In this document: piece after piece, positions 17,132 to 49,644 of the stretch | How positions within the stretch are numbered: position 1 is the stretch's first letter | How the letters are laid out: each line of letters begins with the position of its first letter | Assembly: GCA_016865865.1 (NCBI GenBank) | Contig: VGOC01000001.1 | Location: forward strand, 513 to 64,512 | Length of the DNA stretch: 64,000 nt | From: Chloroflexota bacterium | GTDB taxonomy: Bacteria > Chloroflexota > Anaerolineae > Anaerolineales > UBA11858 | Direction: 5' to 3' | Notes under the pieces: generated by a model | What the model saw: only the letters and a program-made list of their open reading frames with translations | Databases searched by the model: none | What the model was told of the DNA's origin: nothing | Translations under genes and position numbers: made by a program

Positions 17132-19231
17132 TTATACATCCCTTTTGATCACCATCAATGTAATGTCGTCTTGAGGGGGAAGATCTCCCAGGAAACCATA
17201 GAGAGCCTCCAGGATGGCCTGCTGCAAGCCTTCGGCTGATCTGCCCATATTCGTGTTGATTACCTTTTCCAACGCCTGGCGCTTGAAGAGTTCGCCGGCG
17301 CCATTTTGAGCTTCGGTGATGCCATCGGTATACAATACCAGCACATCACCGGAGTGGATCTGGATGCTGGCGCGCTCCCAGGTAGTTTCTTCTTCGATCC
17401 CAACAGGTAACCCGGTGCTCTGAAGAAACTCTGTCGAGGCTCCTTCGTCCGAACGCAGCAGGATGGGGGGGTTGTGCCCGGCGTTGGCGTAAGTCAATGT
17501 CCCTGCCTTGGGATCCAAAATGCCGTAAAAGATGGTCACGAAGAGATTGGCGCGCGAATCCATTAGAATCCTTTCGTTTGTGGCGAACAAGACGATATCG
17601 GGTTGGAATTCGAAATCGAGGGCATACGTGCGGACCAGGGTACGGCTCAGGGTCATGAACAAGGCCGGGCCGATGCCTTTATCGAGCACGTCAGCGAGCA
17701 CCAGGCCGATTTTGCCGTCTTCCAGAGGGATCACATCGAAGAAGTCTCCCGAGGTCTCTCCCGCGGGGACGATGGTTACGGAGAACTGCCACCCTGACAT
17801 ATCGGGGAAGGTGATGGGCAACAGGCTATCCTGGATTTGCCAGGCCAGTTTCAATTCTTCGCGCATGCGTTGAAATTCCAGGGATTGGGTATAGACCCTG
17901 GCCTGGTTGGCGGCCGAGGCGATCTGCGCCCCCAGGGATTGCATGGCGGGGCAGAGGTTTTGTAGGGCGCGCCGATCCCAGGGTTGAGCCAAAGCATAGA
18001 GTTCCAAATAAACACCCCCAAAGGTCTGCCCCGTCTCTCCATCTTTGATCGGTGCAACCACCATCGGGTCATGGTTTCTAATCCCATTATCCCAGGGGAG
18101 AGGCTCGTTAGCTAGAAATGTCTCACCCCGGGTTCGATTTAACAGCCAGGGCCAGATGGTCTCCAAATTGGGCTGCCAATCGAGGGGATATTTTGCCAAT
18201 ATATCCTCAGGGAAAGTCCAGATCACATATCGGCCGGCAGGGAACATGTTGGGCAGGTGATCGGAGAGAATGGTTGGCAGATCTTCGATGCAAGGAGGGG
18301 CGTTGATGATGGCGCGTCCCAGTTGCTCCAGGTGTTGCAACATGCGCGATTGTTGGCGACTGTTTTCACTCGACCAGCTCATCTGCCGCGCCAGAAAAGC
18401 CACGATCAACATGCCGCTGATGAAGAAAAGATAGACTGGAACGCCGTTTTGGGTATAGAGACCGGTCGCCAGGATCGCAAAAGGGTGCGCCAGATGGGGC
18501 AGTCCGAAGGCTAAGAAGAAGAAATATAATACGGAATAAACCCGATCCGACCCGGCTAACACTCTCTGTGACCAGGTTCCATAGACCAGGTATACAGCCC
18601 AGAGCAAGAGCTGTAGGATGAAATTGCTCGCCAACAAGCCAAACGCCAGGGCGATCGTATACGGGTTGATCGCCGCTAGAGGGTAGGTTCCCCCCAAATA
18701 TTGGTAGAGTGTGAAAGCGGTGAGAGCGACGGCGGTGCCGCTGGTGAGGTTCAGAGCCAGGTTTCGGGCCTGCCTCCACCGTGTGGTCAGGGAGGTTGTG
18801 GCAAACCAGTTGTCGAAGAATTCGAGCACGGCGCCAAAAACGGCCAGCCAGAACATGGTCGGGCCGAAGAGCAGCGCGCCTGACCACAAGATGACCCCGG
18901 CCAGAGAGCCGTTGGAGCTTCCGTATCGGTTAGCCCTGAGTTCGACGATCAGGAAGAAGCGCAGATGATTGAAAATAAAAAATAAGGTTGCGAATAACAA
19001 CAGCTCCCAGGGGTGTTTCTGGAAGAGCGACCAGTCGGTTTCGATTGCTAACCAGATCAGCCCGGCGAGGGCCAGCGGCAGGGCATACAGGAAGGTGACG
19101 ATATCCCCCACAGCGATGATCTGCCTCTCGATCTGCATATCCTCCACACCCGAGCGGAATTGGCGGGCGATGGCGAGGAGCAACCGGTAGCGTCTTGGAA
19201 TATGGGTGCGGGTTTTAGGAGGCGTTGTCAT
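17132..19231 (-). CDS. Membrane-bound PP2C-family (SpoIIE/RsbU-like) serine phosphatase
   Basis: About 330-aa multi-TM N-terminus, a GAF-like middle region, and a C-terminal 'SGDFFDVIPLEDGKIGLVLADVLDKG...YTDGITEA' PP2C signature. Confidence 0.85.
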   Translation of the reverse strand: MTTPPKTRTHIPRRYRLLLAIARQFRSGVEDMQIERQIIAVGDIVTFLYALPLALAGLIWLAIETDWSLFQKHPWELLLFATLFFIFNHLRFFLIVELRANRYGSSNGSLAGVILWSGALLFGPTMFWLAVFGAVLEFFDNWFATTSLTTRWRQARNLALNLTSGTAVALTAFTLYQYLGGTYPLAAINPYTIALAFGLLASNFILQLLLWAVYLVYGTWSQRVLAGSDRVYSVLYFFFLAFGLPHLAHPFAILATGLYTQNGVPVYLFFISGMLIVAFLARQMSWSSENSRQQSRMLQHLEQLGRAIINAPPCIEDLPTILSDHLPNMFPAGRYVIWTFPEDILAKYPLDWQPNLETIWPWLLNRTRGETFLANEPLPWDNGIRNHDPMVVAPIKDGETGQTFGGVYLELYALAQPWDRRALQNLCPAMQSLGAQIASAANQARVYTQSLEFQRMREELKLAWQIQDSLLPITFPDMSGWQFSVTIVPAGETSGDFFDVIPLEDGKIGLVLADVLDKGIGPALFMTLSRTLVRTYALDFEFQPDIVLFATNERILMDSRANLFVTIFYGILDPKAGTLTYANAGHNPPILLRSDEGASTEFLQSTGLPVGIEEETTWERASIQIHSGDVLVLYTDGITEAQNGAGELFKRQALEKVINTNMGRSAEGLQQAILEALYGFLGDLPPQDDITLMVIKRDV

Positions 19232-20072
19232 GGTGTGAAAGTGTTGTTCCGAAAGATTTTCCCCCGATTGCCCGGGTCACATTTTTCGGTTGCGCTCCTG
19301 AAAAAATGAGCACCTCGAGGCGAGGTATCTCCTCGACAACATCCAACATTTGCCTGACTTTGCTGGCCATCCCCCCGGTGACGTCCGTCCCTGCCGAGCT
19401 GCCCAAAGCTGGGGCGATTTCGGCGAAATCGGTGGGCGTGATGTTGGGGATCAGTTGCGCACATTGTGGGTAATCAGCCCAGACCCCTTCATCGAGTCCG
19501 GCTAATAGAATACGCCTCGGGTGAAGTTCTCGCGCCAGGTGGCAGAAAAGGTCTTCCGTTGAGAGAATCGTCCCGCCCCGGGCCGTATCGAAAATCACAT
19601 CGCCATGGATTACAGGGAGCAGGCCTGCGTTCAGCGCGGCGCGCAGCGGCTTCAGATCCCAGGCTTGCACCTGTCCATCGCGGGCGGTGACTGCCGCCGA
19701 GGGGTGCAGCGCGATGGCGGGTAGTTTTGCAGCGTGGAGCGCTTCCATCACAATATGGTTCAGCGTGGAGGCGTCCTGCCAGACTTCAGCGAAGCCGCGC
19801 CAGCCCTCGGGCGAATCCACCCCCTGGCGCGTGTTGTGCCTCCTGGCCGACACATGGGCGAACGAGCCAGCCCCATGCCCGATCACTAATCTCAACTCAT
19901 GATCTGCAGCGACTGCGTTCTGGATTTCATCGGCCAGCCGGGCGATGACCTCCAGACGGGGGGTGCGCGGCCGGGTCTTATCGGTGATCAGCGAGCCGCC
20001 GAGTTTGAGGAATTGGAGGCCTGTCCTGAGCGGAGTCGAAGGATTGGAGATTGGAGATTGGAGATTGGACAT
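19215..20072 (-). CDS. Isopentenyl phosphate kinase (amino-acid-kinase fold)
   Basis: 'LKLGGSLITDK', 'VIGHGAGSFAHVSA', 'DVTGGMASKV'. The first ~10 codons are heptamer-repeat derived, so the start is uncertain. The 3' end overlaps the PP2C start by 17 nt. Confidence 0.75.
   Translation of the reverse strand: MSNLQSPISNPSTPLRTGLQFLKLGGSLITDKTRPRTPRLEVIARLADEIQNAVAADHELRLVIGHGAGSFAHVSARRHNTRQGVDSPEGWRGFAEVWQDASTLNHIVMEALHAAKLPAIALHPSAAVTARDGQVQAWDLKPLRAALNAGLLPVIHGDVIFDTARGGTILSTEDLFCHLARELHPRRILLAGLDEGVWADYPQCAQLIPNITPTDFAEIAPALGSSAGTDVTGGMASKVRQMLDVVEEIPRLEVLIFSGAQPKNVTRAIGGKSFGTTLSHHDNAS
20041..20070. repeat. Heptanucleotide tandem repeat (GATTGGA)x4
   Basis: ggattggagattggagattggagattggac. 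On the minus strand it encodes 'SNLQSPISN' directly after the annotated ATG of the kinase. Confidence 0.9.
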
Positions 20073-20263: not shown

Positions 20264-20391
20264 ATATTGGTAACTATTCAGCCTAAGCGAGAGGTGCCCC
20301 GAAAAAAGGGTGTGCGTGGGGGTGCGCAGCACCCCCACGCACACCCTTTTTTCGGGAACTTTCTCTCGATGGCTGAGCAGTTACCTAATAT
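20264..20391. repeat. 128-bp palindromic MITE-like element, full copy
   Basis: Arms ATATTGGTAACTATTCAGCC..CCCGAAAAAAGGGTGTGCGTGGGGGTGC / GCACCCCCACGCACACCCTTTTTTCGGG..GGCTGAGCAGTTACCTAATAT. Second copy at 32511-32634. Confidence 0.85.
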
Positions 20392-22718: not shown

Positions 22719-23366
22719 TCATCCTTTCGACTGGTTGATCGAGCGGGCGATGAACCATTGGGCGGCGAAATAGGCGCTCAAGTTCAGGCCGCGCCCGGCC
22801 AGGAAGGGGAAGCGGAATTTGTTGATCGCCAGGATGGTATCGGAGAGCACGAAGAGCAGCGCGCCGATGAAGGCGAATAACACCCAACGATCCCGGGCTT
22901 GATCCCATTGATCCCAGGCGGTGTAGGCCATGGTCAGGATCACGACGATATAGAAGATCACCGGGAAGGTCATCTCTCCCAAGCCGGGCAATAAGATCAG
23001 GAAGATTCCCACCCCAAATGCCAGATACAGCAGCGCCGGAAGCCAGGCCATGCGCCAGGGTCGCTTTCCCATGAAGGCGCCGATATACACCAGGTGGGCA
23101 ATCAGGAAGCTGACCAATCCAAAGACGAACAAGTCGAACGGCAGCATCAGCATCACATCGCCAGCCAGGGAGAAGATCAGGCCGATGATCACCAGGTTTC
23201 TATACCGAATGATGACCGGCGGTTTCGACAGCGCTGCCAGAGCGATGATCAGCGAGGTGGTCAGGGGTTTGAAGATATAAATCTGGATGGGCGGGCCCTG
23301 ATATTCGGCCCACATGTGCAGCAGGGCGGAGACGATGATGAGAGCTGTCAGGATGAGAGTTTGCAT
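22719..23366 (-). CDS. YhhN-family lysoplasmalogenase-like membrane protein
   Basis: Polytopic. 'FKPLTTSLII', 'FSLAGDVMLM' and 'GALLFVLSDTILAINKF' are YhhN-type motifs. Confidence 0.78.
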   Translation of the reverse strand: MQTLILTALIIVSALLHMWAEYQGPPIQIYIFKPLTTSLIIALAALSKPPVIIRYRNLVIIGLIFSLAGDVMLMLPFDLFVFGLVSFLIAHLVYIGAFMGKRPWRMAWLPALLYLAFGVGIFLILLPGLGEMTFPVIFYIVVILTMAYTAWDQWDQARDRWVLFAFIGALLFVLSDTILAINKFRFPFLAGRGLNLSAYFAAQWFIARSINQSKG

Positions 23367-23520
23367 GGCGATTACCTCCATTCATTCAGGGGAACTGGGG
23401 CGCGGGGGGAGAAAAGGGGAGAACCGAACTGCTTTGATTGTAGTTGAGGCGGTGGAGGAGGTCAAGTTATCGTGAGGAGGCCATTTATTGGGGAGTTGCG
23501 GATATGATAAACTTATTTTT

Positions 23521-24372
23521 GGCGAATGGAATTCGCGGCTGCTGCGCGAAGCCTGCCTGCGTCAGCGAATGGGTCAGCGAATAGGATTCGCGGCTGCCGC
23601 GCGAAGCCTGCCTGCTCAGCGAATGGAATTCGCGGCTGTCGTGCGAAGCCTGCCTGCGCAGGCCGACTTACGTGGGGCAACCAGCGGAGGCTGGTTTTGT
23701 CAGGCAGCGTCGAATTTATTCGATGTGTGAATGGGCGAAAGGAAGCGGTTGTCGCGCGAGGAATGCCTCGCCTGCGTCAGCGAATGGAATTCGCGGCTGT
23801 CGTGCGAAGCCTGCCTGCGCAGGCTGACTTACGTGGGGCAACCGGCGGAGGCTGGTTTTGTCAGGCAGCGTCGAATCTATTCGATGTGTGAATGGGCGAA
23901 AGGAAGCGGTTGTCGCGCGAGGAATGCCTCGCCTGCGTCAGCGAATGGAATTCGCGGCTGTCGTGCGAAGCCTGCCTGCGCAGGCTGACTTACGTGGGAC
24001 AACCGGCGGAGGCTGGTTTTGTCAGGCAGCGTCGAATTTATTCGATGTGTGAATGGGCGAAAGGAAGCGGTTGTCGCGCGAGGAATGCCTCGCCTGCTTA
24101 GCGAATGGAATTCGCGGCTGTCGTGCGAAGCCTGCCTGCGCAGGCTGACTTACGTGGGGCAACCAGCGGAGGCTGGTTTTGTCAGGCAGCGTCGAATTTA
24201 TTCGATGTTTGAATGGGCGAAAGGAAGCGGTTGTCGCGCGAGGAATGCATCGCCTGCGTCAGCGAATGGAATTCGCGGCTGTCGTGCGAAGCCTGCCTGC
24301 GCAGGCTGACTTACGTGGGGCAACCAGCGGAGGCTGGTTTTGTCAGGCAGCGTCGAATTTATTCGATGTTTG
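23521..24372 (+). repeat. Tandem array of hairpin-rich REP-like units (~161 bp)
   Basis: Units start at 23619, 23780, 23941, 24101 and 24262 (periods 161/161/160/161). The last unit is truncated at about 24372. Two short degenerate partial units precede them (23521-23618). The copies differ by only a few substitutions. Confidence 0.95.
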
Positions 24373-24421
24373 AAAGCGTCGAAGAGGGACAGTTTTTGGT
24401 GTAGAATTTAAGGTAGGACCA

Positions 24422-24853
24422 ATGAAAAAGTATTCCGCCCATACCGAGCTATATATCCATATCATCTGGGGAACCTGGGATCGTTTGCCGTTGATCACCG
24501 AGGCCATCGAACGGCGTTTGTATGCCGCAATCGCGGCTAAATGCCGCGAGTTGACATGTATCCCACTGGCTATCGGCGGCATTGAAGATCACGTGCATCT
24601 GCTGGCGCGCCTGCATGCTCCGATCTCGGTTTCGGAGCTTGTCAAAGGCGTCAAAGGTTCTTCTTCCCATTTGGTCACCCACGAGATCACGCCGGGTCAG
24701 TTCTTCAAATGGCAGGGAAGTTATAGCGCCTTCTCTGTCAGTCCGGCGGACCTGCCGCGCCTGGAGGTTTATATAGCCAACCAGAAGCAGCACCATGCCG
24801 CCAACGATCTGACCCTTGAGTGGGAGACATTGAACCCAGAAGCGGAAGAATAA
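24422..24853 (+). CDS. IS200/IS605-family Y1 (HUH) transposase-like protein, RAYT-like
   Basis: 'YIHIIWGTWDRLPLI', HUH motif 'EDHVHLLARL', 'VKGVKGSSSH', 'WQGSYSAFSVS' (candidate catalytic Tyr), 'YIANQKQHH'. Flanked on both sides by the same repeat. Confidence 0.85.
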   Translation: MKKYSAHTELYIHIIWGTWDRLPLITEAIERRLYAAIAAKCRELTCIPLAIGGIEDHVHLLARLHAPISVSELVKGVKGSSSHLVTHEITPGQFFKWQGSYSAFSVSPADLPRLEVYIANQKQHHAANDLTLEWETLNPEAEE

Positions 24854-24860
24854 CAGGCCA

Positions 24861-24981
24861 GCGAATGGAATTCGCGGCTGTCGCGCGAAGCCAGCCTGCG
24901 CAGGCTGACTTACGTGGGACAACCAGCGAAGGCTGGTTTCGCAAGCCAGCGTCGAATTTATTCGATGCGTGAATGGGCGAA
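24861..24981 (+). repeat. Additional copy of the REP-like unit downstream of the Y1 transposase gene
   Basis: GCGAATGGAATTCGCGGCTGTCGCGCGAAGCCAGCCTGCGCAGGCTGACTTACGTGGGACAACCAGCGAAGGCTGG...CGAATTTATTCGATG. Same orientation as the upstream array. Starts 7 nt after the tnpA stop. Confidence 0.9.
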
Positions 24982-25014
24982 TTCATTCGATATTCTTGGA
25001 AAGGAGCAGGCCTC

Positions 25015-27114
25015 ATGGATCCCATCGCGTTAGCTTTATTAGCAAGCGCTCTATCGCCCGCCTTGCTAATCGTGATCGAGAAGATCGGCGAAAAACTGGT
25101 GGAAGTAGGGATCGAACCCACCATCGAGATGGCCCGCGCCAAATTGTTGAAGGGTTATGAGCAAGAGAAAGCAGAACAAGAGTTGCGTGCAGTGGTGATG
25201 GCCGCTCTTGATGACACCCGCCACAAATTGCCCGATGCGTTCGACCGTTCCAAGATCACCAATAAACTCACCGGACGGACAGCAGAAACCTACGCCTTGC
25301 TAGCCGCCGCGGCGGTGGAACTGGCCGACCCTGACCCGGCCAAAATACCCGCCAGGCTGCTTGCCGACCTCGAACTGGAAGAGTCCCACCGTGATCTGCT
25401 GGCATGTTTCTTGGGTAATTTCCGCCCGCGGTTGGCTGATACGAAGACATTCACTCGCCTGATCGAATATTCCAATGACCTCGACCGCCGTGGCTTGCTG
25501 GCCGGGCTTGCCGTAGATGTCGCCGGGATCGCTCGAGGTGTATCTGAAATGGCGCAGAATCTGGAGCGTCTTGTCGCGTATTTTCGGATCGCTGCCGACG
25601 AAGACGAAGCGCTTCGGCAGTACCTGGAGACCCTGCAGGACAGATTACGCTGGCTGCCCCTGCCGCTGGCTGCCCCCAGCGCGGCAAGCGGCCAAACCGA
25701 TGCTGAACTGCGCTGCGTGTACGTGCCTCTGTCGCTCAGAGATCTGGAAGCGGAAGCAGAAGCCCGCCGCAGGGCAGAACGCTTCGATCGCTCCGCCGCC
25801 GAGATGGAGAATGAACTTCGAGAGATAGAAGCCCGACCTGTCGGATTGGGAGAAGTAATCGCCCGGCATGAGCGTTTTGCCATCATTGGCAAGGCAGGTT
25901 GCGGTAAGACCACCCTGCTCAAAATGGCTGCCCTGGCCTTTGCGGAAGATCGAGCCAAAGAAGACCTGGATTGGCAGGGGGAGCCCTTGTTTCCAATCTT
26001 CGTGCGGCTGCGCAATTTTGGCGCCTTCTTGAGCGATCATCCGGAGTATAGAGAACCCGGGCCGGGCGCGTTGACCGCTTATCTTACCCATCATTTCAGC
26101 ATCAGCTACGATCTGGACCTGACTACCAGGTTCTTTGCCCAGAGGCTCAACGCAGGGGGTTGTCTGATTTTGTTGGATGGTCTGGACGAAGTTTCTCAAG
26201 GGCGGCCTGATGTCGCCCAACAGGTGGATGCTTTCATCCGTTTTTATGTTTCCAAAGGTAAGGGCAACCGTTTTGGGCTGGCCTCTCGACCGCGTGGATT
26301 CGAGATGGTTCAAGTCTATTTGCGCGCTTCTCGATTTGCGGTCTGTGATGTCAATCCCCTCACACCGCAGGGCATCCGCCGCCTGACCGCCAGATTGTTG
26401 GACTGGATCGTCAACGATCCCCGGCAGCTTGCTGAAGACCGCCAGAATCTCCCCGATAAGATTCTGGCCTCGGATTCGCTCACCGAGCTGGCCGCCACGC
26501 CGCTGTTTTGTACCGCCTTGACGCTTGTCTACAAGTGGATGGGTTCAGACCTCCCTCAACGGCGGGTGGATGTGCTGGAGCAGGTGGTTGACCTGCTGTT
26601 GGTCTTCTGGAAAGCGCAAGACCCGGATCTGGAGAAGAAGCATGATCTGGCTGTGCTGGATGGCACCGATGTTAGCCTCGATGATTTGGAAATCGTCGCT
26701 GCCAACAAACGCAGCCGTCTGAGCTATCTGGCATACCGCATGCAGACTGCGGACATCAAGACCGAAGTGGACGCGGATATTGCCTGCGCCTGGCTGCAAA
26801 GCTACCTGGAGGATGAAGAAGGTTGTGATCCTGATGTAGCCAACCGATGGGCGGCAGGTTTCTTGCGTTACGCTCACGAATATAGCGGCCTGTTCGTGGA
26901 AGACAAAGGGCCGGGTGTGTATGCTTTCACGCATGAAGGTTTTCGCGAGTATCTGGCGGCGCGTGAGTTGGTGGACCGCGGTGATGCGGTCTTTACGGAT
27001 GAAGTGTTGGAACACTTGTTGGAGGATGCCTGGGAATCCGTCATCCTGCTGGCGGCTGCCTTTCGGGGCTATTCGCGGAAGGCGCGGCGAGATTTGATCA
27101 CATGCGCCTTATAA
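25015..27114 (+). CDS. NACHT-domain STAND NTPase (NLR-like) with unassigned ~280-aa N-terminal domain
   Basis: Walker A 'FAIIGKAGCGKTTLLK', Walker B 'CLILLDGLDEV', and downstream 'ASRPRG' and winged-helix-like blocks. AAGGAG at 25001 precedes the ATG at 25015. Confidence 0.85.
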   Translation: MDPIALALLASALSPALLIVIEKIGEKLVEVGIEPTIEMARAKLLKGYEQEKAEQELRAVVMAALDDTRHKLPDAFDRSKITNKLTGRTAETYALLAAAAVELADPDPAKIPARLLADLELEESHRDLLACFLGNFRPRLADTKTFTRLIEYSNDLDRRGLLAGLAVDVAGIARGVSEMAQNLERLVAYFRIAADEDEALRQYLETLQDRLRWLPLPLAAPSAASGQTDAELRCVYVPLSLRDLEAEAEARRRAERFDRSAAEMENELREIEARPVGLGEVIARHERFAIIGKAGCGKTTLLKMAALAFAEDRAKEDLDWQGEPLFPIFVRLRNFGAFLSDHPEYREPGPGALTAYLTHHFSISYDLDLTTRFFAQRLNAGGCLILLDGLDEVSQGRPDVAQQVDAFIRFYVSKGKGNRFGLASRPRGFEMVQVYLRASRFAVCDVNPLTPQGIRRLTARLLDWIVNDPRQLAEDRQNLPDKILASDSLTELAATPLFCTALTLVYKWMGSDLPQRRVDVLEQVVDLLLVFWKAQDPDLEKKHDLAVLDGTDVSLDDLEIVAANKRSRLSYLAYRMQTADIKTEVDADIACAWLQSYLEDEEGCDPDVANRWAAGFLRYAHEYSGLFVEDKGPGVYAFTHEGFREYLAARELVDRGDAVFTDEVLEHLLEDAWESVILLAAAFRGYSRKARRDLITCAL

Positions 27115-27193
27115 AAGGTGGACGCTCTGCGCGCCGCAGGCGCTGAAAATTGGCTTCATGCCTTGCTGGTTGCCGGGAGCATGGCCAGGGACT

Positions 27194-28354
27194 ATGGAAA
27201 AGCATCTACCGCCCCCCGACCGCAAAAAGGTGGAAGATGCCTTGAAAGCAGTGGCTTCCAGCCCAGACTACTCACCACCCCAGCGCGCCGACGCCGCCGA
27301 CGCCCTCGACCGCCTCGGCTACACCCCCGAGGGCTTGCACCGCTTCATCCCAATCCCTACTCCCCAATCACCCAATTACTATATTGCTCAATACCCCGTC
27401 ACCAACGCCCAATACGAGCGCTTCCTCAAGTCGGGCGACTTTGCCGAAGAACGCTTTTGGACGGCCTTCCCCAAATTCAGCCATCCGAAGGAGGGCAAGG
27501 GTGACGAACTGCGCCTGGAAACCATCGCCTACATCGGCGACTGGGGCGATGAAGGCTGGGAATGGTATAGCAACCCGAAGGATTTTTGGGCGGATAAAGT
27601 GCTAAAAGATGATGCTGGCGTGATCTACCCCCGCTACTGGCACGACCCGCGCTTCGGCATCGCCCGCCGCGGTGTGCCCGTGGTGAGTATCACCTGGTAC
27701 GAGGCCAACGCCTATTGCAAGTGGCTGGCCGAACACTGGGGTGAACGCGAAGAAGCCAGAGAAAACCCCGAACTCGACCCGGCGCAACTTACCTTCCGCT
27801 TGCCCACCGAAGCCGAGTGGATTGCCGCCGCCAGTCCCCCTCTCCCTGTGGGAGAGGGGCTAGGGGTGAGGGGGGATGAGCCGGAAGACCGTTACCCCTG
27901 GGATGACGGGATACGGGCGAAGGATGACCGGGAAGACATCACCCGCCGCGCCAATGTGGATGAAAGCAAAATCGGCCGCACCACGCCGGTGTGGATGTAT
28001 CCTCTGGGGGTAAGTCCCCGTGGGGTGTGGGACCTGGGCGGCAATGTCTGGGAATGGCAGGCGAATTTCTATGACAAGGATCAATACGCGTTGCGGGGCG
28101 GCTTCTGGTACATCGGTCTTAATCTCGCCCGCCTCGCCGTCCGCCGCAGGCACGACCCGGACGGCTGGTACTCGGGCCTCGGTTTTCGGGTGGTGGCGGC
28201 GTTCTCCACGCTCTTCTCTCCCCGCCGGAAATGCAATGTGGCTGAAAGGCTCCACTGCCGAGGCCATGTAGAAGAATGGCGGGGCGCATTCCTGGCCGCG
28301 ACCCTCACCACTTCGGCTTTGCTCAGTGCAAGCCCCAGCCCCTCTATCTGCTAG
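27194..28354 (+). CDS. FGE-sulfatase (SUMF1) / C-type-lectin-fold domain protein with DGR-VR-like C-terminus; possibly the detached C-terminal part of the NACHT gene
   Basis: 'YYIAQYPVTNAQYERFL', 'PVVSITWYEANAYCKWL', 'RLPTEAEW', 'GNVWEWQANFY', 'LRGGFWYIGLNLARLAVRRRHDPDGWYSGLGFRVV'. Confidence 0.8.
   Translation: MEKHLPPPDRKKVEDALKAVASSPDYSPPQRADAADALDRLGYTPEGLHRFIPIPTPQSPNYYIAQYPVTNAQYERFLKSGDFAEERFWTAFPKFSHPKEGKGDELRLETIAYIGDWGDEGWEWYSNPKDFWADKVLKDDAGVIYPRYWHDPRFGIARRGVPVVSITWYEANAYCKWLAEHWGEREEARENPELDPAQLTFRLPTEAEWIAAASPPLPVGEGLGVRGDEPEDRYPWDDGIRAKDDREDITRRANVDESKIGRTTPVWMYPLGVSPRGVWDLGGNVWEWQANFYDKDQYALRGGFWYIGLNLARLAVRRRHDPDGWYSGLGFRVVAAFSTLFSPRRKCNVAERLHCRGHVEEWRGAFLAATLTTSALLSASPSPSIC
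27836..27874. repeat. In-frame mini-palindrome insertion (CCCCTCTCC..GGAGAGGGG..GGGGTGAGG type)
   Basis: cccctctccctgtgggagaggggctaggggtgagggg encodes 'PPLPVGEGLGVRG', between the conserved 'RLPTEAEW' and 'YPWDDG' blocks of the FGE domain. Confidence 0.75.
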
Positions 28355-28375
28355 GGAGAGGGGTGACGGTGAAGG
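28339..28375. repeat. Mini-palindrome of the same family, containing the stop codon of the FGE-domain ORF
   Basis: cccctctatctgctagggagaggggtgacggtgaagg. The TAG at 28352-28354 lies in the hairpin loop. Confidence 0.65.
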
Positions 28376-28378
28376 CCG

Positions 28379-29461
28379 ATGGAATCGAATATGTACCGCC
28401 AATTGTATTCCTGGGACAACCTTCTGCTCGCCTATCATAAAGCTGCCAGGGGCAAACGCGGCTATTCGAATGTCGCAGCGTTTGAGCATCATCTCGAAGA
28501 CAATTTAATGCAATTGCAGCATGAACTACAGACATTCACTTATTGCCCTGGATGTTACGATAGCTTCTATATCCATGAACCCAAGAGACGTTTGATCTCA
28601 GCGGCCCCGTTTCGAGATCGAGTTGTGCATCACGCGCTATGCAATCTGATCGAACCGCTTTTCGAGCGGCTATTTATCCCCGATTCGTATGCCAATCGGA
28701 TTGGCAAGGGAACACACCGGGCTTTGGATCGTGCGCAGGCTTTCGCCCGACGATATCCTTAGAGACTGTTTTAAAAGTCGCCAGAAACCACAGATAAACA
28801 CAGATGAACACCGATTTTCTTGATGAACAGCCGTCTTTTATCGCCGAAATCCCTTTTATCTGTGTTCATCTGTGGCCGATTTGAGTTTTAAAACACTCTC
28901 TTACGTGCTGCAATGCGATATCCGACAGTTTTTTCCATCGGTTGATCATTTGCTTCTTCACAATTTGCTGGCAAACAAGATCGAAGATGACCGCATCATG
29001 TGGTTGATTGACCGCATTCTGGAGAGCGGGCATGAGGTTCTTACCGATGAATATGAGATGGTTTATTTTCCAGGGGATGATCTCTTTGCCGCGAATCGGC
29101 CGCGTGGTTTACCGATTGGTAACCTGACCAGTCAGTTTTGGGCAAATGTCTATTTGAATCCACTCGATCACTTCGTCCAGGTGCGCATCCCAGAACAGTG
29201 ACAGAGGGATTTCCTTTCTTGGGGTTTGTCGTTTTCCCTGAGCATCGCCGCTTGAAACGCCGCAAAGGGATATATTATCTCCGGAAGCTGCGTCGTTTGC
29301 TCGACGCATACCAACGCGGTGAAATCGCGCTCGATGATGTCACTGCGAGTGTGCGGGGATGGGCTAATCATGTTCGTTACGGAGATACCTGGGGTCTACG
29401 AAAGGCCATCTTTCGCACACTGATACCAGCAAAATCGCCTCCTGCCACCCCCCATTCTTGA
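28379..29461 (+). pseudogene. DGR-type reverse transcriptase, disrupted (MITE insertion plus internal deletion of the YxDD region)
   Basis: Three fragments in three frames. (1) 28379-28759 '...[17 protein letters not shown]...ARRYP'. (2) 28902-29180 '[16 protein letters not shown]...[25 protein letters not shown]'. (3) about 29195-29461 '[23 protein letters not shown]...VRGWANHVRYGDTWGLR'. No YxDD motif appears in any frame. Confidence 0.85.
28762..28900. mobile_element. 139-bp MITE with 16-bp terminal inverted repeats and TTA target duplication
   Basis: TIRs GAGACTGTTTTAAAAG (28762-28777) and the reverse complement of GTTTTAAAACACTCTC (28885-28900), 14/16 matching. TTA at 28759-28761 and 28901-28903. 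Internal CACAGAT(A/G)AA subterminal inverted repeats. Confidence 0.85.
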
Positions 29462-29636
29462 CCAGAGTTCAATGATGGGTTTCGAGTGACCCCCCTCTCG
29501 TCCCCCCATTTGCGCCACGGGGACCCACGCCGCCCAGTGATTCCCAGGCGCTAATGGGGGAAAGAGGGCGGTCGCGAGGAGCAGTGGATAGATCTCCAAT
29601 ATCCACTATCCAACCTCCAACTTCCAACCTCCACCC

Positions 29637-30581
29637 TCACCCCTTAACCTCCGTCACAAGCATCCTCACCGCTCCTGCTGCCTGCAAAGTAGCCGCAATT
29701 TGTTCGGCTTGTTCCGGAGCGGCCAGGGCAATCATATTGCCGCCGCGCCCGCCGCCGGAGAGTTTGGCGCCAGACGCGCCGGCTTCGTTCGCCGCCCTGA
29801 CCAGCTTATCCAATTCAGGAGAAGAGACTCCCATTTCGACCAACAGCGCGTGGCTCTCGTTCATCAGCGGCCCGAGGCGGTCGGGGCGTCCCTGCTCGAT
29901 GGCCTGGCGGGCCGACCTTGTGATGCTGCCCACGGCGGCGAAGAGCGTCTCGTAGCGTTGGGGGTCGGCCTGCCAGCCCGCATGCACATCTCCAACGGTC
30001 TCTTTGGTCGGGGTGGCGATTCCGGTGTCGCCGATGACGATGGTGAAGGGCTTGCTGATGCTGAAGGTTTCGATGAGTTGCTGCTTGATGAAGTAGACAG
30101 GTTTGGCGTAGGCGACCACGGTGTTATCTATGCCCGAGGGAGTGCCGTGATGGATTTTCTCGACTTCGAAGGCCAGGGCGGATACTTGCTCATCGGGGAG
30201 GGGATGGCCGAGGAAGCCCGCCAGCGCCCGGATGACGGCCACTGAGACGGCTGCGCCGGAACCAAGGCCGGAGGCCACCGGGATGGTCGAGGTCACCTTC
30301 AGGGTGCAGGCTGGAAGGCGGCTGATTCCCAGGGAGGCAGTAACACCCTCGATCGCGGCAACCAACGCATGGGTCGAGTCCAGCTCATCCAGCCGCCTGT
30401 CCAGACCAATCCCAGGGGCGAGAATCCGCACCGCGCCCGCGTTTCCACGAAGTTCGGGCGTGACCGTTGCCGTGGCGCGCACTTGTGCCACGGGCGCAGC
30501 GATAGCGGGCTGTCCGTAGACCACGGCGTGTTCGCCGAATAAGATGATTTTTCCAGGGGCAGAGGCGGTAAAGGATGGCAT
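29637..30581 (-). CDS. mvk: Mevalonate kinase (GHMP kinase)
   Basis: 'APGKIILFGEHAVVYGQPAIA', GHMP motif 'PVASGLGSGAAVSVA', and C-terminal 'GAKLSGGGRGGNMIAL'. Confidence 0.85.
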   Translation of the reverse strand: MPSFTASAPGKIILFGEHAVVYGQPAIAAPVAQVRATATVTPELRGNAGAVRILAPGIGLDRRLDELDSTHALVAAIEGVTASLGISRLPACTLKVTSTIPVASGLGSGAAVSVAVIRALAGFLGHPLPDEQVSALAFEVEKIHHGTPSGIDNTVVAYAKPVYFIKQQLIETFSISKPFTIVIGDTGIATPTKETVGDVHAGWQADPQRYETLFAAVGSITRSARQAIEQGRPDRLGPLMNESHALLVEMGVSSPELDKLVRAANEAGASGAKLSGGGRGGNMIALAAPEQAEQIAATLQAAGAVRMLVTEVKG

Positions 30582-30595
30582 GAGGCGAAGACAGA

Positions 30596-30657
30596 CTGGG
30601 GACTGCAGACCACGGACTTCAGAGGCATTTCGGCGGTCTGCCGTCCGCGGTCCCCAG
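30596..30657. repeat. GGAC(C/T)GC(A/G)GAC-type palindromic element, intergenic copy
   Basis: CTGGGGACTGCAGACCACGGAC...GGCGGTCTGCCGTCCGCGGTCCCCAG, between the UbiA-like stop and the mvk start. Confidence 0.75.
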
Positions 30658-30660
30658 TCG

Positions 30661-31530
30661 TCAAAATATGTAGAAGATCAGCAGGACGCTGAAGCCGTAC
30701 AGCGCGATGGCCAGTTGCAGCGGGCGGTCGGCGAGGATCAGGTCTTCGGGCGCGCCGCCGGTGTTTTCGACCTGGATCAGGTATTGGTAGCGGAAGATGC
30801 TGTAGATGATGAAGGGGATGGTGAGCATCATGGTGTGGTTGCCGGGCAGGTTGGGGGCGGAAAAGGTGTACAGGCTGTAGGTGATGATGGTCACACCCGA
30901 GGCCAGGGTGATGAGGTGGTCGAGGAATTCCAGGGTGTAGCCATCCAGGACGCGGCGGTGGGCGTTGTCGCCTTCGGCGATCAGACCTAGCTCGGCCCTG
31001 CGCTTCCCTGTCCCGATCAGCAAGGCAAGGAAGGTGGTGAAGATGTACAACCAGGGGGAGAAGCGTTCTACGTCTATCAGCGCTACGCCCGCGGCCACGC
31101 GCAGGACGTAAAAGGAGGCCAGCACGATGATATCCAGCAGGACGATATGTTTCAGCCACTTGGAATAGGATAGATTGAGCGCCAGATAGAGAATTCCGAT
31201 GGCGGCGAAACCTGGGGAAAGCAGGTAGGCGGCCGGCAGGGCCAGGACGAGAATCAGGCCGGCCGCTGCCCAGGCGATTGGGATGGAAAGCTCTCCCGCA
31301 GCGATGGGGCGGAAGCGCTTCTTGGGATGTTTTCGGTCGGCTTCGACGTCGGCGATGTCGTTGATGATGTACACGACGCTGGCAAGCAGGCTGAAGATGA
31401 AGAAGCCGGCGATAATGTGTGAGAAGGCAGGGAAATTGGTCAGCTTGCGGTCGAAGACCAGGCCGACGAATAGGAAGATATTCTTGGCCCACTGTTTGGG
31501 GCGTAATGTTTTGATGAGCGCGATGAGCAT
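30661..31530 (-). CDS. UbiA-family prenyltransferase (decaprenyl-phosphate phosphoribosyltransferase-like)
   Basis: 'NDIADVEADRKHPKKRFRPIAAGEL' Asp-rich motif. Polytopic. Confidence 0.82.
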   Translation of the reverse strand: MLIALIKTLRPKQWAKNIFLFVGLVFDRKLTNFPAFSHIIAGFFIFSLLASVVYIINDIADVEADRKHPKKRFRPIAAGELSIPIAWAAAGLILVLALPAAYLLSPGFAAIGILYLALNLSYSKWLKHIVLLDIIVLASFYVLRVAAGVALIDVERFSPWLYIFTTFLALLIGTGKRRAELGLIAEGDNAHRRVLDGYTLEFLDHLITLASGVTIITYSLYTFSAPNLPGNHTMMLTIPFIIYSIFRYQYLIQVENTGGAPEDLILADRPLQLAIALYGFSVLLIFYIF

Positions 31531-37807: not shown

Positions 37808-38206
37808 CTATGGAACAACTTCGAAGCCTTGCTCGGCGAAGTGTGGGTCGAAGGTGAAAGCGGTCCGAAGCCCAAGGCGGCGCATAGTGGCGAAGCTGGC
37901 GCAATCAACAAGACTAAGTTGTCTGCGGTTGGCAGTGATAAAAGAATCCACGATTTCCTGGTGTTGCCGAGTATTGATCCACTCTTTATGAAGCCAGGGC
38001 ATGATTTTTTCTTGTAAATCGCGAATGGCGCTCATTCCCAAACGGTTCTGAACCAGTGCGTAGGCTTCGACGAGTAAATAGTTGTTCGTATAGAGCAGGA
38101 CGCTCTTCTGAATTAAATCATGCCAGGCTTGTTTGGCGATAAGATGTGAACCATCCTGCAAAGATAGCATGGCGAGTACGGCTGACGTATCAATCAAGAT
38201 CATCAT
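37808..38206 (-). CDS. vapC: PIN-domain toxin (VapC-like)
   Basis: 'MILIDTSAVLAML' with the conserved Asp, and later 'SLVDCASFATM'. A 17-nt overlap with the upstream small ORF. Confidence 0.78.
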   Translation of the reverse strand: MMILIDTSAVLAMLSLQDGSHLIAKQAWHDLIQKSVLLYTNNYLLVEAYALVQNRLGMSAIRDLQEKIMPWLHKEWINTRQHQEIVDSFITANRRQLSLVDCASFATMRRLGLRTAFTFDPHFAEQGFEVVP

Positions 38207-38453
38207 CGCCGCCTATTTCTGCATAAATTTCTGCCAGGTAAATGTCGTGGTTGATAGAGACATCTGTCGCGCCTTCAATGTCATGGTATTCGCCAATCGC
38301 CATCGCCCGTCGTTTTAGTTCTTCCCGGCTGGGCTGTATCTGCCGCTCGACAAGCAAATCCACCCCTTGCCGCACCAACTCCGCCATGGAGACGCTATAC
38401 TCGGCAGCCTTCTGCAGGTCCCCAATACCCAATACCCAATACCCAAAATCCAA
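38190..38453 (-). CDS. Putative antitoxin (helix part of an RHH-like fold), N-terminus probably truncated or repeat-derived
   Basis: 'SVSMAELVRQGVDLLV' resembles RHH helix 1-2 and the tail is acidic. The first ~12 codons come from the (CCCAATA)n repeat. Alternative ATG at 38387. Confidence 0.45.
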   Translation of the reverse strand: MDFGYWVLGIGDLQKAAEYSVSMAELVRQGVDLLVERQIQPSREELKRRAMAIGEYHDIEGATDVSINHDIYLAEIYAEIGGDDDLD

Positions 38454-39231
38454 GGACTACCTTTGGCTTCACTTACGCGACTTGCCATACTTCCGCGCCC
38501 TGCTGCGAGCTGTCGAAGCGCGTTTCTATGTGGATATTGCCCTGCCGGCCCCGACCCTGGATGTAGGCTGCGGCGATGGGCATTTTGCCGCGATCGCCTT
38601 CGAGCGTCCGTTGGAGGTGGGAATTGATCCCTGGCGGGGGCCTTTGCGTGAGGCGGGCAGGCGAGGGGCTTATCTCGGCCTGGCGCAGTCCGATGGCGCG
38701 GCGCTGCCCTTCCCGGATGGTCACTTCGCCAGCGCGGTGAGCAACTCGGTCCTGGAACATATTCCCCATCTCGATGATGCGCTGATCGAGATCGCTCGGG
38801 TGCTCGAACCAGGCGCGCCGTTCGTTTTTTGCGTGCCCAACGATAATTTTTTGCCGTCCCTTTCGATAGGCCGCTGGCTTGATCGCGCGGGCTTGCGCCG
38901 CATGGGGGACGCCTACCGCTCCTTCTTCGATCGTATCTCCCGGCATTATCATTGCGATCCGCTCGACATTTGGGAAGCGCGGCTCGATGGGGCGGGCTTT
39001 CATATCGAGCGTTGGCGGCATTATTTCTCCCCCGGAGCTTTGCGCATCCTGGAATGGGGGCATTATTTTGGCCTGCCGTCATGGATCAGTCATCTACTTA
39101 CCGGGCGATGGATTCTCTCTCCGACGAGATGGAATCTCGCTCTCACGCGGCGTTTGGTGCAACGATATTACGATGATCCGATCGCTGCCGAAGATGGCGC
39201 CTATACATTCTACATAGCCAGACGGGAGTGA
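38386..39231 (+). CDS. Class I SAM-dependent methyltransferase
   Basis: 'LDVGCGDGHF' motif I, 'SNSVLEHIPHLDDAL', 'LEPGAPFVFCVPN'. The start is uncertain (ATG 38386; the N-terminus crosses the heptamer repeat). Confidence 0.72.
   Translation: METLYSAAFCRSPIPNTQYPKSKDYLWLHLRDLPYFRALLRAVEARFYVDIALPAPTLDVGCGDGHFAAIAFERPLEVGIDPWRGPLREAGRRGAYLGLAQSDGAALPFPDGHFASAVSNSVLEHIPHLDDALIEIARVLEPGAPFVFCVPNDNFLPSLSIGRWLDRAGLRRMGDAYRSFFDRISRHYHCDPLDIWEARLDGAGFHIERWRHYFSPGALRILEWGHYFGLPSWISHLLTGRWILSPTRWNLALTRRLVQRYYDDPIAAEDGAYTFYIARRE
38421..38448. repeat. Heptanucleotide tandem repeat (CCCAATA)x3 + CCCAAAA
   Basis: cccaata cccaata cccaata cccaaaa, at the junction of the divergent antitoxin-like and methyltransferase ORFs. 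Confidence 0.9.
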
Positions 39232-39290
39232 GGCAGGAAGCTCCAGCCGTTTGCCGCCTCTGATAAGATCGAGTATCATTGTCCCCTGAT

Positions 39291-41471
39291 ATGAAAGAAC
39301 CAACTGTCTTGGATTACGTGAGGTCGAAGATATTTTTCTGGCGGGGCGAGAGGGTCGAAATCCCCTTGCCTGGCGATGAAGTCGAGGGAGACGATCTTCG
39401 CGAACTCGTCCAGGGACTCCCCCTCGATGAAGTTGGATCGCTTTCTACCCCTGAGGCCTCTGAACCTGGCACACGCGGCGCGTTCGATTGGGTCCGTTGG
39501 GTGGGTTGGAAGGCGCTGCTGCCCCTGGGGTTGGCTCTGTTTGCTCAACGCGCCCTGGAACCCCCGCATCGTAGCCTGAGTGCCGGGATCGTTTTCTATC
39601 TCCTTGCCCTGGGGGTTCTCGTGTGGGCCCAATGGCGTGGACATCTGGCGCTGCCCCATATGGCCGGAATGGATTATCGAAGCGACTCGCTCCCGATACG
39701 CTTGCTTCCGATGGGGGGGAGCATCGTTTTTGGCTTGTTGGCGTTCCTCGCTTTTGAGGGGAATCGGTTCACGCAGATGAATCTCGTTCTATGGGTGATC
39801 TCTCTGGCATTATTCATTTACGCGTGTTGGATGCCCGGCCGCGAGGCAAATCCCTGGCGGGAGAGAGTGCGTATAGCCTTAATCTACTTCAGAGATCATG
39901 GCGTTCACTTCTCCCCCTGGACATTATTCGTCATCAGCGTGTTCGCGCTTTCGGCCTTCTTCCGACTCTATCGCCTGGACAGCGTCCCCCCGGAGATGTT
40001 CAGCGACCACGCCGAGAAACTACTCGATGTGGCAGATGTGCTCGATGGCGAGTACAGCATCTTCTTCACCCGCAATACCGGGCGCGAAGCCTTCCAGATG
40101 TACTTGACGGCGGCGATGGGGAAGCTCTTCGGAACCGGTCTGTCGTTTCTCAGCTTGAAGCTCGGCACCGCCCTGGCTGGTTTGTTCACCCTACCCTTCA
40201 TTTACCTGCTGGGCAAAGAGATCGTCAACCGGAGAGTGGGTTTGCTGGCGATGGCCTTTGCGGGGATCGCCTACTGGCCCAATGTGATCTCCCGAGTAGC
40301 CTTACGTTTTACGCTTTATCCCTTCTTCGCCGCGCCGACGCTGTATTTTCTGATACGCGGTTTACGCCGGGGAAGCCGAAATGATTTCATTTTGTCGGGC
40401 ATATTCTTGGGGCTGGGCTTGCATGGCTACAGCCCCTTCCGCTTTATGCCCATTGTGGTTTTGGTTACCGTGGGGTTGTTTCTGCTGCACCACCGTTTGA
40501 AAGCGATCAGCCGGCAAACTCTTTGGGGATTGATTGTTTTGATCTTGGCCTCTCTGTTGGTTTTCCTTCCCCTGCTGCGTTTCGCGCTGTCGAACATGGA
40601 CTCTTTCTCCTATCGCATGCTGACGCGCATGACGGATGTCGAGCAGCCTCTCTCCGATCCAGCCTGGCAGGTTTTCTTGGAAAACTTATGGGGGGCGATG
40701 ACCATGTTCTTCTGGGATGACGGCGAAATCTGGGTGCATTCCGTGACCCACCGCCCGGCGCTGAGCGTGGTCTCGGCGGCGCTGTTTTTCCTTGGGGGGG
40801 GAATGCTGACGGTGCGCTATCTGCGGCGGCGGGATTGGTTGGATGCCTTTTTGTTGGTCTCGATCCCGCTGTTGATGATGACTTCGGTCTTGTCGCTGGC
40901 CTTTCCGGGGGAGAACCCCTCTCTCAATCGGACAGGGGGAGCCTTGATCCCGGTTTTCCTGATCGTGGGGATAGCGCTCGATGGACTGCTGACCACCCTC
41001 GAGGGGAGTCTGAACCGCCCTCTCTGGGGACAGCGATTGGCCGGGGGCGTTGGCGTGCTCCTTTTGGCGTGGTCCTGCGCCCAGGATTATGATCTTGTCT
41101 TCAGGCAATATACGAACTATTTTGCCCTGGCCTCCTGGAATACCTCCGAGTTGGGCGCGGTCATCCGCCAGTTTGCCGACACGATTGGGGAGGAAGACAC
41201 CGCCTGGGTGGTGCCCTATCCCCATTGGGTGGACACGCGCCTGGTGGGCATCCGGGCTGGGGTTCCACTGAGGGATTACGCCCTCTGGCCAGATCAACTC
41301 TCCCAAACCCTGGATGACCCGCGAGCAAAGCTGTTCCTCTTCAAGCCCGAAGACGTCACAGCGATGGAAACCTTGCGCGAGCTGTACCCGACTGGCGTGC
41401 TGCAATTGTACGACTCGGAAATCGAAGGCAAGGATTTCTATGTCTATTTCGTGCCCCCCGCTCAACGTTGA
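39291..41471 (+). CDS. GT-C fold glycosyltransferase, family 39 / ArnT-like
   Basis: Polytopic N-terminal half. 'FFRLYRLDSVPPEMFSDHAEKLLDVADVLDGEYSIFFTRNTGREAF' resembles PMT_2/ArnT loop 1. Soluble C-terminal domain. Confidence 0.7.
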   Translation: MKEPTVLDYVRSKIFFWRGERVEIPLPGDEVEGDDLRELVQGLPLDEVGSLSTPEASEPGTRGAFDWVRWVGWKALLPLGLALFAQRALEPPHRSLSAGIVFYLLALGVLVWAQWRGHLALPHMAGMDYRSDSLPIRLLPMGGSIVFGLLAFLAFEGNRFTQMNLVLWVISLALFIYACWMPGREANPWRERVRIALIYFRDHGVHFSPWTLFVISVFALSAFFRLYRLDSVPPEMFSDHAEKLLDVADVLDGEYSIFFTRNTGREAFQMYLTAAMGKLFGTGLSFLSLKLGTALAGLFTLPFIYLLGKEIVNRRVGLLAMAFAGIAYWPNVISRVALRFTLYPFFAAPTLYFLIRGLRRGSRNDFILSGIFLGLGLHGYSPFRFMPIVVLVTVGLFLLHHRLKAISRQTLWGLIVLILASLLVFLPLLRFALSNMDSFSYRMLTRMTDVEQPLSDPAWQVFLENLWGAMTMFFWDDGEIWVHSVTHRPALSVVSAALFFLGGGMLTVRYLRRRDWLDAFLLVSIPLLMMTSVLSLAFPGENPSLNRTGGALIPVFLIVGIALDGLLTTLEGSLNRPLWGQRLAGGVGVLLLAWSCAQDYDLVFRQYTNYFALASWNTSELGAVIRQFADTIGEEDTAWVVPYPHWVDTRLVGIRAGVPLRDYALWPDQLSQTLDDPRAKLFLFKPEDVTAMETLRELYPTGVLQLYDSEIEGKDFYVYFVPPAQR

Positions 41472-41499
41472 ACGTTCGAGACATATTGCTTAAATTACT

Positions 41500-46896: not shown

Positions 46897-47000
46897 ACAG
46901 TGTACAACACTGTGCTGTGCATTGCTTTTGATTGCTCAGGCTAAAGCCTTCGCAGGGAGAATTCCAAAAAAAATGGGTGACTGGTAACTGGTATACTCGA

Positions 47001-49550: not shown

Positions 49551-49644
49551 CGATATAATACAACGAACCTGAGAAACCCGGTTTCTGACATCTTTAGGTT
49601 GACGTCCTTGGCAAGAGAAACTGGGTTTCTAATGAAAACGTTCT

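Follow-up and report, generated by a model that had tools for sequence, protein, structure and literature searches.

A probable wreck of a diversity-generating retroelement and its NLR-like NACHT-lectin target gene in a Chloroflexota bacterium

A contig of a Chloroflexota bacterium (VGOC01000001.1, assembly GCA_016865865.1) carries, close together, open reading frames (ORFs) for a NACHT NTPase, for a protein of the FGE-type C-type-lectin fold and for a reverse transcriptase (RT), and the question raised by this locus is what these genes formed together and how they came to their present state. We analyzed a 64,000-nt stretch of the contig (the window, within which all positions are counted). 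A preliminary description had taken the region 25015-29461 for a relic diversity-generating retroelement (DGR) coupled to an NLR-like NACHT/lectin sensor, and the RT, the target gene and the adenine pattern reported below bear this out. Judging from this evidence, the locus is likely to be the wreck of a DGR whose hypermutation was directed at the ligand-binding tip of an NLR-like sensor, and no part of the cassette can function any longer. The three ORFs lie in one orientation where they had been placed, and the features of the cassette are as follows.

25015 to 27111 (alternative start 24973), + strand, frame 1: 5' part of the sensor gene, coding for a helical N-terminal domain of about 210 residues and a NACHT NTPase.
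27112 to 27114, + strand: in-frame TAA; homologs have a sense codon there (Q in the closest, P0122).
27190 to 27196, + strand: +1 frameshift caused by one additional T, at about 27193, after MARD and before MEKHLP; homologs read MARDMDKYLP in a single frame.
27194 to 28207, + strand, frame 2: 3' part of the sensor gene, coding for a linker and the FGE-type C-type-lectin fold.
28080 to 28179, + strand: body of the variable region (VR), the putative formerly hypermutated codons, delimited by composition, adenine pattern and family entropy.
28180 to 28207, + strand: G/C-rich 28-nt 3' block common to the VR and the template repeat (TR), the putative crossover zone.
28208 to 28390, + strand: probable former TR-RT spacer, in which the FGE ORF now has its last 49 codons (stop 28352-28354).
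28391 to 28759, + strand, frame 2: RT fragment 1 (residues 1-123 of relatives; tblastn with P0001, 80% identity).
28760 to 28901, + strand: insertion of 142 nt resembling a miniature inverted-repeat transposable element (MITE), with terminal inverted repeats at 28761-28779 and 28883-28901.
28902 to 29177, + strand, frame 3: RT fragment 2 (residues 124-216 of relatives; tblastn, 76% identity), with IGNLTSQ at 29115-29135.
29177 to 29178, + strand: RT deletion junction; by alignment to relatives 45 codons and 1 nt (about 136 nt) are gone, the YVDD catalytic box included.
29178 to 29461, + strand, frame 2: RT fragment 3, the C-terminal thumb region (tblastn, 65% identity to residues 258-348 of P0001).

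As judged from its sequence, the RT is of the DGR lineage, because the best PDB relative of the reconstructed protein was the 328-residue RT of entry 8ub7, which we take to be the RT of the Bordetella phage DGR (E=1e-38, against 1e-12 for group II RTs), and because its close relatives sit in cassettes with TR/VR pairs. Thousands of RTs with about 350 residues share 60-76% identity with it, and motif 4 of the window RT, IGNLTSQ, is of the (I/L/V)GxxxSQ variant. The RT groups with DGR RTs and not with retron, Abi or group II RTs, a check that the preliminary description had proposed.

The claim that the RT in cis is inactivated was also confirmed, since an intact RT with a YxDD box is excluded by both of its lesions. 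The deletion took the stretch that in relatives lies between DHFV and PGAHP (...KRELRC.GY.RYVDDFLLF...LRLTIH...), and the reading frame goes from 3 to 2 across the junction. The insertion is clean, between codons that are adjacent in relatives (RRYP and YVLQCD). Its 19-nt terminal inverted repeats are 89% complementary, it folds as DNA into a strong hairpin (z=-5.3) and its putative target-site duplication is ambiguous, T or TA. The window holds one copy; a 38-nt stretch of it matches a related locus (L032) at 89%. Among contigs from other assemblies, one spans the insert entirely and six end within it, suggesting that further copies exist. The insert is probably a multicopy MITE of the lineage.

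We fetched 80 related loci, mostly from Anaerolineae and other Chloroflexota, 56 of them with enough upstream flank to be tested. Forty-five loci (L001 and L003 included) carried a direct repeat pair of 63-141 nt with mismatches almost solely on the adenines of one copy, which is the TR/VR signature. A conserved Avd ORF (111-131 residues) is present in almost every relative and was recognized by Pfam bAvd in L001 and L003. Two cassette orders occur, target(VR)-avd-TR-spacer-RT and target(VR)-RT-avd-TR, and a neighbor-joining tree of the RTs divides cleanly by order, with the window RT in the clade that has the TR upstream, beside L019, L014 and L044. The N-terminal motif of Avd differs by clade as well (MPIFTRTFDFLTWLLP.. 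in target-avd-TR-RT loci against MNESPLFxRTYDLLLW.. in target-RT-avd-TR loci). An RT scan of contigs from species-representative genomes gave no locus above about 61% identity, and the genome of the window is apparently not in that collection.

The NACHT and FGE ORFs had been described as coupled modules. Both domains are present, but by alignment with homologs they are the halves of one gene for about 1,070 residues, split by the TAA and the frameshift, and not two genes. The NACHT ORF (24973 or 25015 to 27114) encodes 713 residues (699 from 25015), matches Pfam NACHT with E=8.6e-9 (35.9 bits against a cut-off of 26.7) and contains both Walker A (GKAGCGKT) and Walker B (LILLDGLDEV). In its AlphaFold2 model (pLDDT 89) an all-helical N-terminal domain of about 210 residues precedes the NACHT module, and the best PDB folds found by Foldseek were NLRC4, NLRP3, NOD2 and NAIP5, with E down to 6e-9. 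With its Walker motifs and its helical/winged-helix module the protein is an NLR-like STAND NTPase by both Pfam and Foldseek. The FGE-sulfatase ORF (27158-28354) encodes 398 residues (386 from the ATG at 27194; Pfam E=8e-32), and its model (pLDDT 92) was closest to FGE, SUMF2 and EgtB. A PDB sequence search with this lectin half returned FGE-family enzymes and PorK. The predicted structures are thus those of an NLR-type NACHT fold and an FGE-type lectin, as had been expected.

The two halves are assigned to a single broken gene because fused homologs align through the TAA and then change frame. The NACHT part matches the full-length fusion P0122 over residues 7-727 with 60% identity, and a tblastn search with P0122 passed the TAA in frame +1 at this identity and switched from frame +1 to +2 at about 27193; the coordinates for P0123-P0125 also extend beyond the stop. 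The lectin half is 48-50% identical to the C-terminal third of P0122-P0125. A conceptual NACHT-FGE fusion spans 98-99% of about 100 two-domain homologs of 1,000-1,085 residues (the closest being P0122 and P0123), and in intact relatives, L001 among them, the DGR target is such a full-length fusion. In the window, by virtue of the two lesions, no single polypeptide joins the NTPase to a C-terminal sensor. No bNACHT, Avs or other defence model of PADLOC matched either half, the only match being a marginal P-loop match to mad8 (E=9e-4).

A VR lies at the C-terminus of the lectin fold, although the gene is interrupted upstream. In the C-terminal 50 residues of 77 homologs a near-invariant scaffold (GNVWEW, LRGGSW, AR, P, GFR) alternates with blocks of more than 3 bits of entropy, which is the picture expected of a DGR variable region. 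The VR body has an adenine fraction of 0.119 and no AAC codon. Among 44 relatives these values fall within the range of the VRs (median adenine fraction 0.115, median of 1 AAC codon) and beyond that of the TRs (median adenine fraction 0.252, never fewer than 3 AAC codons). When the repeat was compared with the TR of L019, 22 of 29 TR-adenine positions differed, against 16 of 79 others (p=1.7e-7), and the flank was without such bias. This adenine-templated pattern, for which the preliminary description had suggested a search, indicates past mutagenesis and not a present TR. The VR had been put at 28037-28195; it is indeed in the FGE C-terminus, but its proper extent is about 28080-28207, GNVWEW being invariant scaffold in relatives.

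The absence of avd and TR was confirmed within the window. No TR was found on either strand by blastn-short or by an ungapped adenine-tolerant scan, and no avd by tblastn with the Avd proteins of 40 relatives or by an Avd hidden Markov model run on the six-frame translation. A direct repeat (28040-28061 and 28262-28283) was considered as the start of a TR and rejected, as it has 73% identity with 3 of 6 mismatches at A and the TR would enter the RT. In a metagenome search with the VR pattern carrying N at variable positions, the two matches were VRs of other organisms. Contigs of the window's own population gave no match, although the window VR fits the pattern; the collection is apparently without this population, and the result has no bearing on a remote TR.

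The state of the VR 3' flank suggests how both parts were lost. VR-type bases end at 28179 and TR-type bases begin at 28208 (TCCAC, against TCCC in the VRs of relatives), from where on the flank is TR-type and not VR-type. In relatives the exact identity blocks of VR and TR are 22-38 nt long and often at the 3' end; these figures are longest exact runs, an alternative measure being confounded by an adenine difference at the repeat end. An nhmmer profile of 220 nt around and after TR ends matched 28183-28312 with E=2.4e-21, and a profile from the TR ends of the other architecture matched the same stretch (1.4e-7). Profiles of post-VR sequence gave no match on this stretch. The blastn matches of the post-repeat sequence in relatives lay at -19 to +98 nt from TR ends, and 28196-28260 is very similar to the sequence after the TR of L019, with which it shares a lineage-specific GCGG..CG insert. 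The distance from the spacer to the RT start is about 79 nt, equal to that in L013 and L038. Together these results make it probable that avd and TR were removed by a single deletion between the two repeats, with the crossover in the shared 28-nt block. Such a deletion would account for four features, namely the absence of both avd and TR, the loss of the target's stop codon and the extension of the FGE ORF by 49 codons. The gap of 25 nt that had been counted between FGE and RT is misleading, as the codons from 28208 on would be read-through of the former TR-RT spacer, and the RT starts at 28391.

The proposed history is as follows. The ancestor would have consisted of a sensor gene (helical N-terminus, NACHT and an FGE lectin ending in the VR), avd, the TR, a structured spacer and the RT. 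RT and Avd would have copied TR RNA to cDNA with errors at adenines, and the mutated cDNA would have replaced the VR, re-randomising about 20 lectin-surface codons of the NLR-like switch. VR and TR would have been direct repeats of about 130 nt, and a deletion caused by homologous recombination or replication slippage would have fused the VR body (to 28179) to the TR 3' flank (from 28208), the crossing within the G/C-rich block taking the target stop codon along with avd and TR. The RT was struck separately by the MITE-like insertion and the YVDD-removing deletion, and the sensor gene gained the TAA and the +1 frameshift in the linker between its NACHT and lectin modules. With five lesions (the TAA, the frameshift, the 142-nt RT insertion, the RT deletion of about 136 nt and the loss of avd and TR) the locus lacks what an active DGR needs and keeps the marks of DGR ancestry.

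Several points weigh against this reconstruction. The TR and avd searches covered the 64-kb window and not the remaining genome. No pre-collapse allele that keeps avd and TR was found for the lineage, and the event is read from relatives of at most 76% RT identity. The contig of L019 ends before the VR flank, so that the nearest relative gives no VR-flank comparison. At about 190 nt, the distance from VR to RT would also fit the target-RT-avd-TR order, seen in the closest target homolog (L004). Finally, an assembler could have mis-joined the sequence through the shared block, which only reads could exclude. A mis-join is unlikely because the 28-nt block is shorter than k=31, with which Logan contigs are built, and because five assemblies agree.

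The spacing raises the alternative that the ancestor had the order target(VR), about 100-280 nt, RT, avd and TR, and that avd and TR were lost downstream of the RT. This order was found in 18 related loci, including that of the isolate Levilinea saccharolytica (L070), and merely 175 nt separate the RT stop from mvk in the window, which would fit a downstream loss. In L004, and likewise in L005, the intact target (P0122, 1072 residues, in L004) and its VR are followed after 155 nt by an RT fragment that ends after about 98 residues, with 76-nt tandem repeats. L004 adjoins ilvD, as does the intact L001, and the truncated RTs indicate that decay of these cassettes is not unique to the window. We nevertheless regard such an ancestor as unlikely, since the window RT belongs to the TR-upstream clade of a tree that is split by architecture, the VR-RT interval is a post-TR element by its profile match, and a profile made from the VR-to-RT spacers of target-RT-avd-TR loci matched only the RT 5' end (28367-28453).

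By comparison with other assemblies the lesions are real and fixed in the population, because they are the same in independent assemblies. The contigs compared (JGI 3300020083/84/221; SRR7008372, SRR16108674 and SRR7990334) are 99.85-100% identical to the window. Five of them (99.95-100% identity), from at least four samples, span both lesions of the sensor gene as well as the junction of VR and spacer, and show no VR difference. Their single-nucleotide polymorphisms (SNPs), at 24095, 24249, 27502 and 28244, are all outside the VR, two of them in a neighboring repeat array. The population heterogeneity in the VR that the preliminary description had proposed to look for was thus not seen. The RT deletion junction was covered by three contigs, of which two are 100% identical to the window and the third 99.85% overall with five unplaced mismatches. 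In all, the RT lesions recur in four independent metagenome assemblies.

The same data bear on whether the decay was partly adaptive, the loss of the machinery freezing a useful variant and leaving NACHT (699 residues) and lectin (386 residues) as a two-protein sensor. Each half remains a long open frame without another lesion, the near-invariant residues of the family are intact wherever they were checked, the frameshift falls in the 79-nt interval that separates the stop from a conserved in-frame ATG, and the state is fixed in the population. However, recent decay accounts equally well for the intact frames, almost all of the about 100 close homologs are single fused proteins, and the lectin half bears a 49-residue tail translated from non-coding spacer, which leaves the adaptive explanation improbable. 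A bolder version, in which the collapse would be a recurrent built-in off-switch of avd-TR-RT cassettes that freezes a receptor variant, and the two separate halves would continue to work together as a sensor whose specificity no longer changes, we consider highly speculative.

The locus could also be a degenerate satellite served in trans, with an intact sibling DGR elsewhere supplying RT, Avd and TR and diversifying the VR. Degenerate loci do lie beside one complete locus per DGR class in Thiohalocapsa PB-PSB1 (PMC10907252), and L004 has an intact target beside its truncated RT. In the window, however, the reading frame of the target is broken twice, and the VR is identical in the five assemblies while SNPs occur nearby. 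The TR-type end does not serve as a recipient in the homing of the Bordetella phage DGR and, by analogy, the present TR-type 3' flank of the VR may block homing in the window. Service in trans is therefore very improbable. That the RT is of retron, group II or Abi/UG type, with an ordinary member of the FGE enzyme family nearby by chance, is hardly conceivable. Weak matches to generic models speak for it (group II 1.8e-12, retron St85 8e-6, UG families in PADLOC), but the 8ub7 RT beats group II RTs by 26 orders of magnitude, the close relatives of the window RT lie in verified TR/VR cassettes, and the FGE C-terminus has the adenine pattern and the entropy checkerboard.

The proposed deletion would have left the sequence that follows the TR in place, and this sequence contains a further conserved feature.

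28233 to 28258, + strand: post-TR RNA hairpin (about 7660-7700 in L001; alignment columns 123-175; RNAalifold).

In 24 loci RNAalifold predicted a hairpin directly 3' of the TR with 10 pairs, 8 of which have compensatory changes, and the window retains 9 of the 10. Conserved single-stranded motifs follow it (CCGAGGC, GAAAAATGGCGGGGC..TTCCTGGCCGCG and CGGGCAAATAACAAC), and Rfam gave no match to it. The hairpin may act as the functional RNA of the spacer in these DGRs.

Dore et al. (2024, PNAS; PMC10907252) described a DGR lineage of multicellular and filamentous bacteria, Chloroflexi included, with targets that combine a NACHT, nSTAND or KAP NTPase with a diversified C-type lectin; these targets were proposed as antigen sensors, and 'degenerate' loci and MITE-like degradation of DGR parts were reported. 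Their 'clade 5D' DGRs resemble the locus of the window in the target (N-terminal extension, central NACHT, C-terminal lectin with the VR), the avd-containing cassette of the relatives, the filamentous Chloroflexota host lineages, the degenerate loci and the MITE-like degradation; in the window, by contrast, the target is broken too, the TR is gone and nothing is functional, and the assignment to this clade is by resemblance only. The degenerate loci of Thiohalocapsa PB-PSB1 (PMC10907252) and L004/L005 share with the window the missing or pseudogenised machinery and a repeat or MITE-like sequence at the damaged RT. Unlike L004, the window has a broken target, and avd and TR appear to have been removed at a junction exactly inside the VR/TR repeat. 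The avd-TR-RT order is among those catalogued by Wu et al. (2018; PMC5758913).

The inferred ancestral order (target, avd, TR, spacer, RT) is also that of the Bordetella phage BPP-1 DGR (mtd-avd-TR-brt), which is similar in the RT (as judged by 8ub7), the (I/L)GxxxSQ motif, the position of the VR at a lectin-fold C-terminus and the structured RNA after the TR. Unlike that DGR, the cassette of the window is chromosomal and inactive, its lectin fold is of FGE type, and its target would be an intracellular-type NLR-like switch, whereas the BPP-1 target is a tail-fibre receptor-binding protein. With antiviral NACHT/Avs STAND proteins and animal NLRs it shares the Walker A/B NACHT and the succession of N-terminal domain, NTPase and C-terminal sensor, and the predicted NBD-helical-winged-helix module superposes on NLRC4, NLRP3 and NOD2. 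The sensor differs from theirs in being a lectin fold and not LRR or TPR repeats, and matches no bNACHT or Avs model in PADLOC.

DGR-diversified NACHT-lectin sensors and degenerate loci being already published, the window locus is a dead member that adds little as a sensor system. What it offers is a concrete candidate route of DGR loss, the VR-TR collapse, recognisable as a diversified repeat followed by a TR-type flank and spacer. A literature search found no report of such a collapse, which is a weak negative. Surveys that need a TR/VR pair would miss relics of this kind, and surveys that count RTs would over-count active systems. The relatives further reveal two cleanly separate cassette orders in Chloroflexota, and their covariation-supported post-TR hairpin is a candidate handle on cDNA priming in cellular DGRs.

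The surroundings of the cassette contain the following features.

23382 to 29636, between yhhN and mvk: 6.25-kb block made up of REP array, RAYT, broken sensor gene and broken RT.
23488 to 24400, + strand: tandem array resembling repetitive extragenic palindromes (REP), with a 161-nt unit in about 4.8 copies (23606-24374, Tandem Repeats Finder) and shorter units.
24422 to 24853, + strand: REP-associated tyrosine transposase (RAYT), an IS200-like Y1 transposase of 143 residues (Pfam Y1_Tnp E=3e-20; NCBIfam transpos_IS200 E=5.7e-16).

The interval between yhhN (22719-23381, - strand) and mvk (29637-30581, - strand) is 6,255 nt in the window. Only 28 nt separate the two genes in a related genome (L097), and a PAS/GAF/HD gene occupies the spot in another (L096). 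Relative to L097, the cassette and the RAYT/REP array are, on this alignment of gene order, insertions between yhhN and mvk, and given the other gene in L096 the interval looks like a variable site. The mevalonate kinase encoded by mvk is most similar to Anaerolineales and Chloroflexota proteins.

The adjoining RAYT/REP array was present as described: the Y1 transposase has the repeat array upstream and another unit downstream, as in a RAYT/REP system. The extra REP units are at 24859-24981, abutting the sensor gene start, and at 20264-20391, 3 kb off on the other strand with 82% identity. Together with the missing avd and TR and the inactivated RT, this array had been thought to make the copy unusual. 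These features do not amount to a peculiar architecture; they reflect ordinary decay and mobile-element traffic, with the absence of avd and TR explained by the probable VR-TR collapse. An Rfam search of 22-31 kb gave sub-threshold noise only, namely CRISPR-DR28 on the REP palindromes and a snoRNA on the MITE hairpin; a CRISPR-DR28 reading of the 24-nt palindromic core of the REP units was rejected as chance resemblance.

An amino-acid-kinase-family gene (isopentenyl phosphate kinase-like, 19215-20072) flanks the island on one side, and mevalonate kinase and a UbiA prenyltransferase (29637-31530) flank it on the other. Chloroflexota have an alternative mevalonate pathway, with which these kinase and prenyltransferase genes are consistent. 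Farther along the window, at 38000-51500, the AT skew is strongly negative (to -0.38) across big + strand ORFs of 730, 1798, 872 and 578 residues.

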